DNA of 22,961 bases from Anaerohalosphaeraceae bacterium (GTDB lineage: Bacteria > Planctomycetota > Phycisphaerae > Sedimentisphaerales > Anaerohalosphaeraceae). Position numbers and translations under genes: made by a program. The notes under the pieces were generated by a model. It worked only from the letters and a program-made list of their open reading frames with translations, was not told the DNA's origin and did not search any database. Location of the stretch: the NCBI GenBank assembly GCA_050309605.1, contig JBNRMN010000028.1, positions 1-22,961 on the forward strand, written 5' to 3'. Below, in pieces: positions 6,262 to 8,370 of the stretch. Numbering within the stretch: the first letter of the stretch is position 1; each line of letters opens with the position of its first letter.

Positions 6262-6452
6262 ACACAGACCGGTTTAAGTGGGTAATCTGTCTTTAATTTC
6301 AGCGATAACTGTCGTAATGACAATGGGTTGGATTATCTTTGCGGAGCTTGGAATTGCAAGAAAAAATATCCGCCGACAAAAGCAAAATCGAACGGATCAG
6401 CCGGCGCGGTCGGCTTGCCTAACGCATCGGCAGCCGCGGGTGCGGCCGGAAC

Positions 6453-6656
6453 TTAGGCGACAACGGCACACATATCGTGGTCGCGAATTTCCTGAGCAAT
6501 CCTGAACGCGGCGTCAAGCGCCAGCGAAAAAACAGGGTCGAGAGGGTCGCAAATGCGATGCGCCTGAAGAAAACACTCCGCCAGCGAGGTGGCGTTCGAA
6601 AAGCCAACCATGCGGATCTGGTCATACATCCAGCCTGAAATCTGTTCCTGTGTCAT
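6453..6656 (-). CDS. Small hypothetical protein (67 aa)
   Basis: Strong RBS AGGAGA about 6 nt before the ATG, an otherwise empty intergenic position, and a sigma28-like promoter upstream. Confidence 0.65.
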   Translation of the reverse strand: MTQEQISGWMYDQIRMVGFSNATSLAECFLQAHRICDPLDPVFSLALDAAFRIAQEIRDHDMCAVVA

Positions 6657-6727
6657 TGCTCATCTCCTAAATCGAAAGACGTGCCGCCGGTTCGAACACG
6701 AACAGACCGGCGCTGCTTTCCACAGGT

Positions 6728-6755
6728 ATATCGGTCGGGCAGCGGGTTTTATTGA
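6728..6755 (-). promoter_or_regulatory. Putative sigma28-like promoter of the 67-aa ORF
   Basis: TCAA-N16-ACCGATAT, compared with the sigma28/SigD consensus TAAA-N15/16-GCCGATA(A/T). Confidence 0.4.
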
Positions 6756-6917
6756 ATTTTTTTGAAATCCGTCCACGACTCGCCCGAACACCCCCACTCC
6801 AAGCCAACAGGCGGCTATAGGTCTGGTATAGGGGTTTTTCCCTATAAGGGGCCGACATTATAGGGGTGATAATAACAGTGATATCTGTATTTTTTTCAGG
6901 ATTGTCCGATAAAACAC

Positions 6918-6945
6918 TAAAGAGTTTGGGGGGGTGTGTCGATAA
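6918..6945 (+). promoter_or_regulatory. Putative sigma28-like promoter of the ParA-CBM gene
   Basis: TAAA-N16-GTCGATAA; the spacer contains a G7 run. Confidence 0.45.
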
Positions 6946-7026
6946 TAACAGTGTGGATAATACGGTTAATAATTCGGTTTTTGGAAAATGCCGGTTTCCC
7001 GGCAGGTTAAAGGAGTAACCCATACC

Positions 7027-8244
7027 ATGAGGACTGTGGCTGTTATCAACCAGAAGGGCGGTTGCGGCAAGACGACGGTGGCGATCAATCTGGCCAGTGC
7101 CCTGGCATCCAAAGGGTATCGGACGCTGCTGGTCGATATGGATCCGCAATCGCACTGCGCGGTCGGGCTGGCGGTTCCCGAAGAACAGATCGAACAAAGT
7201 ATTTATGATGTGCTGATCGGAACCGGACGCGGCGAGCCGATGCGAATCAGTGAGATTCTCTGGCAGATCTGCGAACGGTTTGAGCTGGCGCCGTCCAGTA
7301 TCGATCTGGCGGCTTTTGAGCAGCAGATGGCGGGAGTGGCCGACCGTGAAAATTGCCTGACCAAAGTGCTCCAATCCCTTCGCGATGAGTATGATTATGT
7401 GCTGATTGACTGTCCGCCGTCGGTGGGCTTGCTGACGTTTAACGCACTGCGGGCGTCAACCGATGTGGTCATTCCGGTAGAGATGGGCTATTTTTCGCTG
7501 CACGGCCTCAGCAAGCAGCTTGAGACGCTCCAGGTCCTGTGCCGTCAGTGCGAACAGCACATCAATGTCATGGTGCTGGCCAGCATGTACGACATTCGTA
7601 CCAAGATGGCCCGCGAGATTCTGGCGGAGCTGAAGAAGAATTTCTCAGAGAAAATGTTCAAAACGGTGGTCAATTTCAACACCAAACTCAAAGAAGCCGC
7701 CAGTCTCGGCCAGCCGATCAGCGAGTATGACCCGTCCAGCAAAGGCTTCAAGGACTTTTTGAATCTGGCCGATGAGCTGATCGGAACCGATACACAGATG
7801 CATCGCGCCGAGCTGGTCAATTCGCTGCAGGCCAAGCTGGGCATTATCAGCGCCAGCGCCGACGAACTGCTGGCGACGATCACGCCCGACAGGCAACAAC
7901 AGCAGCAGGTCGAACCATCCGAGGCCGCGGCAACCGCAACCCTCGATGAAAAGCTGGCCGATTTTTACGGCGCTCATCAGCTCAACGGCAAGGTGGTGTT
8001 CTCGACGTTTTATCCGCGAGCCAAAACCGTTCAGATCGCCGGCGACTTCAACGGCTGGAATCCTCAGGAAACCACAATGCAGAAAGTCAGCGACAACGGC
8101 AAATGGCAGCTCCAACTGCCGCTGGAGAAAGGAACCTATCGCTATCGTCTGGTCGTGGACGGCCAGTGGCAGCAGGACCCGTACAATGAACTGACCGAGA
8201 TGAATCCCTTCGGAGAGATGAACTCGGTGCTGTACGTCGATTAA
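7027..8244 (+). CDS. ParA/Soj-family ATPase fused to a C-terminal AMPK-beta-like (CBM48-like) glycogen-binding domain
   Basis: Deviant Walker A KGGCGKTT, VDMDPQ, Walker B YVLIDCPP, then a Q-rich linker and VQIAGDFNGWNP...GKWQLQLPLEKGTYRYRLVVDGQWQQDPYN...NPFGEMNSVL. RBS AGGAG upstream of ATG 7027. Confidence 0.92.
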   Translation: MRTVAVINQKGGCGKTTVAINLASALASKGYRTLLVDMDPQSHCAVGLAVPEEQIEQSIYDVLIGTGRGEPMRISEILWQICERFELAPSSIDLAAFEQQMAGVADRENCLTKVLQSLRDEYDYVLIDCPPSVGLLTFNALRASTDVVIPVEMGYFSLHGLSKQLETLQVLCRQCEQHINVMVLASMYDIRTKMAREILAELKKNFSEKMFKTVVNFNTKLKEAASLGQPISEYDPSSKGFKDFLNLADELIGTDTQMHRAELVNSLQAKLGIISASADELLATITPDRQQQQQVEPSEAAATATLDEKLADFYGAHQLNGKVVFSTFYPRAKTVQIAGDFNGWNPQETTMQKVSDNGKWQLQLPLEKGTYRYRLVVDGQWQQDPYNELTEMNPFGEMNSVLYVD

Positions 8245-8276: not shown

Positions 8277-8310
8277 GCGAGCGGATAAGCGATTATCGGC
8301 TCGCTTTTTT
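8277..8310 (+). terminator. Rho-independent terminator between convergent genes
   Basis: Stem GCGAGCGGATAA / TTATCGGCTCGC (1 mismatch), GCGA loop, then T6. Confidence 0.8.
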
Positions 8311-8370
8311 CGTTTCTGTCAGATATGTGCCTTTGCTTCTGCCTTGAGCATCCCGGTTCGCGAGGCGTTT

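Follow-up and report, generated by a model that had tools for sequence, protein, structure and literature searches.

What does a ParA-type ATPase do with a carbohydrate-binding module (CBM) attached to its C-terminus? The question is raised by a gene on the forward strand of contig JBNRMN010000028.1 (assembly GCA_050309605.1) from an Anaerohalosphaeraceae bacterium of the class Phycisphaerae, of which we analyzed positions 1 to 22,961, referred to here as the window. The gene occupies positions 7027-8244 and encodes a protein of 405 residues, the fusion, for which an earlier reading of the sequence (the original prediction) suggested a role in positioning glycogen granules. Glycogen is the most common bacterial carbon store. 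To our knowledge, a separate adaptor is involved whenever ParA/MinD ATPases position chromosomes, plasmids, carboxysomes, chemoreceptor arrays or flagella, and our literature searches returned no ParA/MinD positioning system described for glycogen. We favor, tentatively and at somewhat less than an even chance, the reading that the fusion links alpha-glucan particles to the nucleoid in an ATP-dependent manner, as a tether or a positioning device. Other roles of the ATPase and other ligands of the CBM are weighed below, as the evidence that bears on them is given.

A Soj-type ATPase joined to a predicted glucan-binding module

The fusion protein is laid out as follows:

7027..7785, + strand, Soj/ParA-type deviant Walker A ATPase, residues 1-253 (Pfam, Protein Data Bank (PDB) sequence search, Foldseek)
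7792..7878, + strand, additional helix C-terminal to the ATPase core, residues 256-284 (AlphaFold2 model, pLDDT 50-70)
7879..7941, + strand, disordered Q-rich linker, residues 285-305 (pLDDT <50 for 285-303)
7942..8244, + strand, short helix and CBM48/AMPK-beta-like beta-sandwich, residues 306-405 and stop codon (Pfam, phmmer, pLDDT ~90)

Every motif quoted by the original prediction is found in the translation. The ATPase is intact: it contains KGGCGKTT (residues 10-17), DMDPQ (37-41), IDCPP (127-131), YDIRTK (188-193) and NTKLKEA (218-224), with the signature lysine K10, the Walker A lysine K15, the Walker A' aspartates D37 and D39, and the Walker B aspartate D128. The linker includes QQQQQ (292-296), and the aromatic residues expected of the CBM are present in GDFNGW (339-344), GKW (358-360), YRY (371-373) and DGQW (378-381). 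Pfam assigns the domains that had been anticipated, with matches far beyond chance and above the curated cut-offs: AAA_31 over residues 1-180 (E 5.4e-52, 176.7 bits, cut-off 27), CbiA (E 1.3e-19), CBM_48 over residues 314-386 (E 4.9e-13, 49.6 bits, cut-off 22.4) and AMPK1_CBM over residues 331-404 (E 6e-12, 46 bits, cut-off 26.8). No NCBIfam equivalog model reaches its cut-off, the best being ParA_partition with 112 bits against 180, and the sole PADLOC match of the fusion protein is a 23-bit P-loop.

In the AlphaFold2 model, for which 24 orthologues were used (mean pLDDT 78), a Soj-like core (1-253) is followed by a helix (256-284), disorder (285-303), a short helix (306-313) and a beta-sandwich (316-404) with pLDDT of ~90. 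The extra helix includes two invariant columns, A278 and L281, and two columns conserved at 90% or more, L267 and L282. Foldseek places the ATPase core closest to PDB entries 9a6n, 8ray and 2bek (E 1e-22 to 1e-25, TM(target) 0.87-0.89), and among solved structures the best sequence matches are 8ray, the Myxococcus ParA (E 6e-51), and 1wcv, the Thermus Soj (E 8e-45). Over its C-terminal 96 residues the fusion matches the CBM of a pullulanase (2wan, phmmer E 2e-8), as well as GlgB (3k1d) and the CBMs of AMPK beta1 and beta2 (1z0n, 1z0m, 2f15 and 4y0g, phmmer E ~1e-6).

The alignment with AMPK beta brings W344, R374 and W381 of the fusion to chain positions 33, 59 and 66 of 1z0n. We take the 1z0n construct to start at residue 68, which would make these positions W100, K126 and W133. 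According to a review (PMC6274970), glycogen binding by AMPK beta1 is lost with the substitutions W100G and K126Q and is weaker with W133L. Judging by the alignment, the fusion CBM keeps these predicted alpha-glucan contact positions. The originally proposed architecture, an orphan ParA with a built-in CBM, is confirmed: a Soj-like ATPase, a flexible linker and a CBM48 domain, with no adaptor found alongside the gene.

Conservation, selection and descent

Conservation was assessed over 99 rows, comprising 69 proteins from public metagenome-assembled genome (MAG) loci and 30 from a sample of the class, with the window protein counted twice. Residues K10, K15, D37, D39, D128, R191, W344, Y373, R374 and W381 are invariant in all 99 rows, and N399, which like W344, R374 and W381 lies at a sugar-binding position, and G396 are present in 98. 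K220 and K222 are lysine or arginine in 99/99 rows; at K220 this bears out the suggestion that basic residues at the presumed nucleoid-binding positions are partly retained. Identity to the window protein over 29 orthologues ranges from 59 to 92% in the ATPase, from 45 to 99% in the CBM and from 22 to 81% in the linker, taken here and for the substitution rates as residues 257-318. The ratio of non-synonymous to synonymous substitution rates (dN/dS) was estimated by the Nei-Gojobori method for 13 pairs, using only those with unsaturated dS. It is 0.018-0.064 for the ATPase (8 usable pairs), 0.016-0.160 for the CBM (11 usable pairs) and 0.051-0.434 for the linker (10 usable pairs), the highest of the three regions. 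The low dN/dS of the ATPase and the CBM shows that purifying selection acts on the catalytic domain and on the sugar-binding site alike; only the tether is free to vary.

To establish the distribution of the fusion, 201 genomes spread evenly over Phycisphaerae were searched with the whole protein and with the CBM alone. A genome was counted as a carrier when both matches fell in one open frame, checked by eye; the count was made by hand, with two cases split by contig ends and ~3 uncertain. The fusion is present in ~137/201 genomes and in 19 of the 23 families. It was not seen in families f3 (0/3), f5 (0/26), f16 (0/7) and f18 (0/1), and family f8 has it in 6 of 27 genomes. Among the best 120 matches in a search of 5.8 billion proteins, all have both domains at 74-97% identity, and the named entries are MAG proteins of Phycisphaerae, Anaerohalosphaeraceae or Planctomycetota. 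A scan of one genome per species gave 585 relatives, of which the 80 that were kept are titled Phycisphaerae, Sedimentisphaerales, Tepidisphaerales, Phycisphaerales or (mis)binned planctomycetes. In a maximum-likelihood tree of 42 ATPase domains, the 30 that belong to fusion proteins form one clade (100/100) on a long stem, and its inner branching tracks taxonomy. The fusion is therefore vertically inherited across most of Phycisphaerae. Clusters of the same architecture in the ESM Atlas are also commonest in Candidatus Omnitrophota.

These conservation data bear on the choice between a housekeeping tether or sensor and an immune sensor. The latter was put forward for the 'CBM-containing system' (ConB5) by Li, Burroughs and Aravind (bioRxiv 10.64898/2026.10.19.760177), who describe a sporadic distribution, a fast-evolving CBM and accessory genes. 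The CBM would detect an infection-linked carbohydrate or the depletion of a polysaccharide, and ParA multimerisation would then limit the invader. Occurrence of the fusion in the Omnitrophota clusters fits such a system. Within Phycisphaerae, by contrast, the gene is widespread, follows taxonomy and is not sporadic, while purifying selection acts on its CBM, whose binding residues do not vary; both premises are contradicted by the Phycisphaerae data. Together with the neighborhood evidence given below, this leaves an immune role very unlikely for the Phycisphaerae protein.

Relation to other ParAs and to ParB

The genome of the window encodes three Soj-like ParAs, and the other two, on contigs C43 and C8, are each 38% identical to the fusion. 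Measured against 8ray, the C43 copy (C43:10555-11349) scores 210 bits, the C8 copy (C8:31963-32838) 182 bits and the fusion 177 bits; against Thermus Soj the fusion scores 157 bits. The C43 ParA (264 residues), the best match to 8ray in the genome, lies inside a pilM / T2SSM-like / secretin cluster (C43:8296-13700), which suggests that it is dedicated to a pilus or secretion machine. The C8 ParA adjoins an unannotated open reading frame (ORF) of 160 residues. In all five fusion-less genomes tested, the best ParA is of the C8 type (50-63% identity, 281-353 bits), and the same proteins are 41-47% identical to the C43 type. Two orthologues from the same order group with the C8 ParA in the tree (100/99), apart from the fusion clade. 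Because each of the five fusion-less genomes has a C8-type ParA, the fusion is an additional paralogue and the C8 type is the widespread ParA. The profiling against the other ParAs and parB that the original prediction had proposed thus sets the fusion apart as an extra paralogue in a clade of its own, rarer than ParB: ParB is found in 194 of the 201 Phycisphaerae genomes and the fusion in ~137.

The window includes no parB, as originally noted for the immediate surroundings of the gene. A full-length parB with all three ParB domains stands alone on another contig (C66:26607-27593), with no parA within 5 kb, and two weak ParB_N matches are found elsewhere in the genome. The separation is general: 19 of 20 diverse Phycisphaerae genomes have no ParA within 5 kb of parB, so linkage cannot name the partner of ParB. 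Only the family of G070 shows the two genes side by side, with a parA that is divergent. In five genomes from the family of the window, the fusion and parB are found on one contig, 63-170 kb from each other; in G144 the distance is 4 kb.

The fusion might itself be the ParA of this orphan chromosomal ParB, with the CBM as an accessory that physically couples partitioning and glycogen. Its Soj-like ATPase, with the scores to 8ray and Thermus Soj given above, agrees with this, as do the lack of a parA beside parB, here and in 19/20 genomes, and the contig distances. Two other Soj-like ParAs in the same genome nevertheless score higher to 8ray, ParB is far more common than the fusion, and the C8 type, which forms its own clade, is found in every fusion-less genome tested. 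Given an extra fusion and a widespread C8 type, this pairing is less likely, and we consider it decidedly improbable.

The same comparison bears on a sensory role. As with AMPK, which glycogen modulates through the CBM of the beta subunit, the CBM of the fusion could signal the amount of stored glycogen to a Soj-like ATPase switch: the ATPase would be sequestered on glycogen or released from it, and its level on the nucleoid would adjust replication, segregation or division to the carbon reserve, instead of granules being moved. Such a sensor draws on the same structural evidence as the tether (Pfam domains, the AMPK-beta alignment and residue conservation). It requires neither an activator nor a cargo-specific partner, which is consistent with a solitary gene, and the unlinking of parB from parA in 19/20 genomes leaves the ParA partners in the class open. 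Against it, no target was identified, the regulation of DnaA by Soj is known from Bacillus subtilis only, the widespread C8-type ParA falls outside the fusion clade, and the fusion was not found in ~64/201 genomes that still have ParB. A precedent for sensing exists in AMPK, which glycogen inhibits via the CBM, as stated in PMC6274970. On balance we regard a carbon-store sensor as unlikely.

A possible tether between glycogen and the nucleoid

For the favored role as a tether, the following mechanism can be envisaged. The ATP-bound dimer of the fusion would bind the nucleoid non-specifically, as Soj does, while its two CBM48 modules, on flexible tethers of ~50 residues, would bind alpha-1,4/1,6-glucan (glycogen) particles. 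With many copies of the fusion on each particle, the result would be a reversible, ATP-dependent link between glycogen and the chromosome. In this way granules would be distributed over the length of the nucleoid, each daughter cell would receive a share, and the ATPase would carry its own cargo adaptor. Glucan binding, DNA binding, dimerisation and an effect on granule position are all predicted here from the sequence and its homologues. A bolder version of the proposal, a single-polypeptide ParA system in which one gene both tethers and partitions glycogen on the nucleoid with no activator partner, strikes us as rather doubtful; were it true, the system would be the first device to partition a polysaccharide store actively. 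Either way, the family can be tested directly: a fused domain of known specificity indicates what the cargo is, and purifying selection has maintained the family across most of the class. A fusion that works as a tether could also serve as a minimal part with which glucan particles or tagged cargo are fixed to DNA.

The genome of the window has glycogen-type genes. An operon on the minus strand of contig C82 (C82:24906-29588), a non-classical glycogen gene set, encodes a GT4/GT5 glycosyltransferase, a GH57 protein of 406 residues and a debranching enzyme (GDE_N and GDE_C). Two alpha-glucan phosphorylases score 878 and 545 bits to TIGR02094, and TreZ is present. A further ORF of 1810 residues (C23:20922-26351) carries a GlgA-like GT5 starch-synthase domain at residues 1145-1405; its first 1100 residues have no Pfam match.

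Several observations weigh against a glycogen tether, beginning with these same genes. Neither GlgC nor a GH13 GlgB was found in the genome, and the glycosyltransferase of the operon, with 132 bits where the cut-off is 302, is no more than glycogen-synthase-like; the glycogen pathway is incomplete by the usual markers. Across the class, a GH57 orthologue is present in 175/201 genomes and GH13 GlgB in 23/201, filling most of the gaps. GH57 or GlgB occurs in ~133/137 carriers versus 57/64 non-carriers (hand tally). We rejected this co-occurrence as support, the difference being too small and the genomes too related, and the test itself is weak because glucan genes are nearly universal in the class. 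Glucan metabolism does not depend on the fusion, which is missing from many genomes that have glucan genes; in family f5 a GH57 orthologue is found in 25 of 26 genomes and the fusion was seen in none of the 26. An apparent co-loss in family f3 was weakened on inspection, as G110 and G117 have a phosphorylase and GT5, and only G036 is without markers.

Five alpha-glucan markers (the GH57 family, GH13 GlgB, TIGR02094, Pfam Phosphorylase and GT5) are all without a match in three carriers of 98-100% completeness (G056, G092 and G074), yet the fusions of these genomes keep every key CBM and ATPase residue. The three are real counter-examples unless their glucan is made by unrecognised enzymes. The original prediction had held that frequent absence of glycogen synthesis from carriers would count against it; this genome does not show such an absence, whereas these three genomes do by the markers used. 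Ratchet-type ParA systems require an ATPase activator. No activator or adaptor gene was found in the genome of the window, and the one candidate partner family, encoded downstream of the fusion at some related loci and described below, has no orthologue there by tblastn or hidden Markov model (HMM) search. No glucan gene is present among the 23 most recurrent neighbor clusters of 63 related loci, and our literature searches found no experimental work on any ParA-CBM member.

The three marker-less carriers with an intact CBM invite the thought that its ligand is not the cell's own storage glycogen but, for example, a protein partner, maltodextrin taken up by the cell or a different alpha-glucan, and that the ATPase organizes an uptake or metabolic machine. 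The Pfam CBP_BcsQ match of the fusion (E 8e-15) points the same way, as ParA/MinD relatives such as BcsQ place polysaccharide machinery. The conserved residues, however, correspond to the alpha-glucan contacts of AMPK beta, the fusion protein has no Pfam membrane or secretion domain, and no conserved neighbor hints at a machine. We give such a ligand only a slim chance and retain glycogen as the favored cargo.

The CBM also occurs without the ATPase. Small ORFs (95-190 residues) with only an AMPK-beta-like CBM are found in the fusion-less family f5, and CBM-only ORFs lie beside the fusion in one genus of the family to which the window belongs; none is found in the genome of the window. Examples are G160:C70:10703-10936, G021:C10:39085-39342 and G068:C6:109349-109579.

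Genomic neighborhood

The surroundings of the fusion in the window are made up of housekeeping genes, and PADLOC finds no match among 13 neighbors. Neighboring genes and further features of the window are:

Upstream, divergent: CcsA-like and ResB-like cytochrome c assembly genes
Downstream, convergent: Gfo/Idh/MocA oxidoreductase
Also around the fusion: ECF sigma factor, PDZ protein, UPF0047 protein and LysA
1-955, - strand, partial 16S rRNA (Rfam SSU_rRNA_bacteria, model positions 1-964; the 3' part lies beyond the contig end)
18036-18108, + strand, tRNA-Phe(GAA)

We surveyed 72 related loci and clustered the neighbors over 63 of them. Across the 72 loci, only the gene directly downstream on the same strand recurs. 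In 15/72 loci (L085, L087, L093-L097, L100, L102, L108, L109, L120 and L123-L125) this position is held by a gene of 386-747 residues with no Pfam domain. The 15 members of the family are fast-diverging, with a mean column identity of 27%. No sequence relationship to ParA is seen by hhalign (probability 0.3%, E 0.22), and the modelled structure has a weakly matching MinD/FlhG/FleN-like core (Foldseek E 6e-9, TM(target) 0.48) and a second C-terminal domain, with no P-loop motif in the consensus. In the genome of the window there is a single match to the family (E 4e-5), a MinD/FlhG-like ATPase that is intact and has a Walker A of its own. The fusion stands alone in the lineage of the window and in its closest relatives (L047-L050 and L084). 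Another downstream gene, of 200-240 residues in 9/72 loci, was rejected as a partner: it contains P_proprotein and PEP-CTERM, looks secreted and is probably unrelated. Other recurrent neighbors have housekeeping functions: PurE, Hsp20, E2 acyltransferase, GluRS, FtsK and an HldE-like protein.

The neighborhood completes the evidence on an immune role. The ConB5 variants described in bioRxiv 10.64898/2026.10.19.760177 carry either a TM-CBM gene upstream or an REase together with a second inactive ParA. The fast-diverging gene found downstream in some orders, with its weak resemblance to MinD/FlhG-type folds, fits the 'second inactive ParA' variant. The 23 recurrent neighbor clusters are otherwise housekeeping or without a family match, the Pfam-less downstream gene being the exception, and the PADLOC result above adds no defense gene. 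Of the accessory genes named in the preprint (TM-CBM, second inactive ParA and REase), none is found in the window or the genome, and neither an effector nor a partner was found in this genome.

Start site and flanking signals

The forward-strand ORF spans 6988..8244. Its favored start is the ATG at 7027, which is likely the true one because it follows an AAGGAG site and because the N-terminus MRT[V/I]A[V/I]INQKGG lacks an upstream extension in 17 of 30 orthologous loci, that of the window included; the originally assigned start accordingly holds. Signals flanking the gene are:

6945..6973, + strand, putative weak sigma-70-like promoter match, ATAACA-17-AATAAT (9/12 positions match)
7010..7015, + strand, ribosome-binding site AAGGAG, 11 nt before the ATG (sequence read)
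8287..8316, + strand, terminator-like hairpin (8287-8306) followed by TTTTTT, 43 nt after the stop codon, between convergent genes

The promoter match is not significant, with three sigma-70-like sites near the gene against 1.4 expected. The original prediction gave the gene a terminator of its own. A hairpin with a T-run does follow the stop codon, but since it is placed between convergent genes it may serve both. Upstream of the fusion gene lies a divergent intergenic region of 765 nt without genes (window 6262-7026). An exact 13-nt direct repeat, GATAATAACAGTG, is found there at 6868 and 6941; as a regulatory lead it was rejected, being absent from every other locus fetched.

Sequence pieces from RNA-labelled libraries also cover parts of the gene. 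One exact contig of 201 nt covers 7757-7957, one piece of 151 nt matches without difference and another with a single difference, from two runs labelled 'RNA? (probably DNA)', and the other pieces are mostly matches of 31-56 nt to conserved motifs. Such libraries can contain DNA, so these pieces do not show transcription.

Comparison with known systems

Chromosomal Soj/ParA proteins (Myxococcus xanthus 8RAY, Thermus thermophilus 1WCV/2BEK and Helicobacter pylori 6IUB) share with the fusion the signature lysine, 38-40% identity over ~255 residues and a fold that superposes with TM(target) of 0.84-0.89. K220 lies at the presumed position of the Soj DNA-binding arginine. The fusion differs from these proteins by its C-terminal helix, linker and CBM48 domain, by the lack of an adjacent parB and by its separate clade.

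With McdA/McdB and ParC/PpfA the fusion has in common an orphan ParA-family ATPase, a presumed non-DNA cargo and the nucleoid as the likely matrix. In the McdAB and ParC systems, cargo binding and ATPase stimulation fall to a separate adaptor, whereas here the cargo domain is fused and no adaptor was found. Sequence similarity to McdA itself (6non/6noo) is low, at ~40 bits.

The closest likeness in architecture is ConB5, which is identical in joining ParA to a C-terminal AMPK1_CBM, as bioRxiv 10.64898/2026.10.19.760177 describes it. This preprint is the only paper mentioning the ParA-CBM architecture that our literature searches found. The architecture is therefore not new, having been catalogued computationally there; the original statement that no characterised system of this kind is known stands in our searches as to characterisation. 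Unlike ConB5 as presented in the preprint, the fusion is widespread within Phycisphaerae, its CBM is conserved, and the gene is solitary in this genome.

The presumed sugar-binding half of the fusion finds its counterpart in the CBM48 of AMPK beta (1Z0N, 1Z0M and 2F15), with which it shares the aligned W, K/R and W glycogen-binding positions. A further position, presumably L146 of AMPK beta, is Phe or Tyr in the fusion rows. The two proteins differ in that K126 of AMPK beta is replaced by arginine, and in that the CBM of the fusion is carried on a P-loop ATPase rather than on a kinase scaffold.

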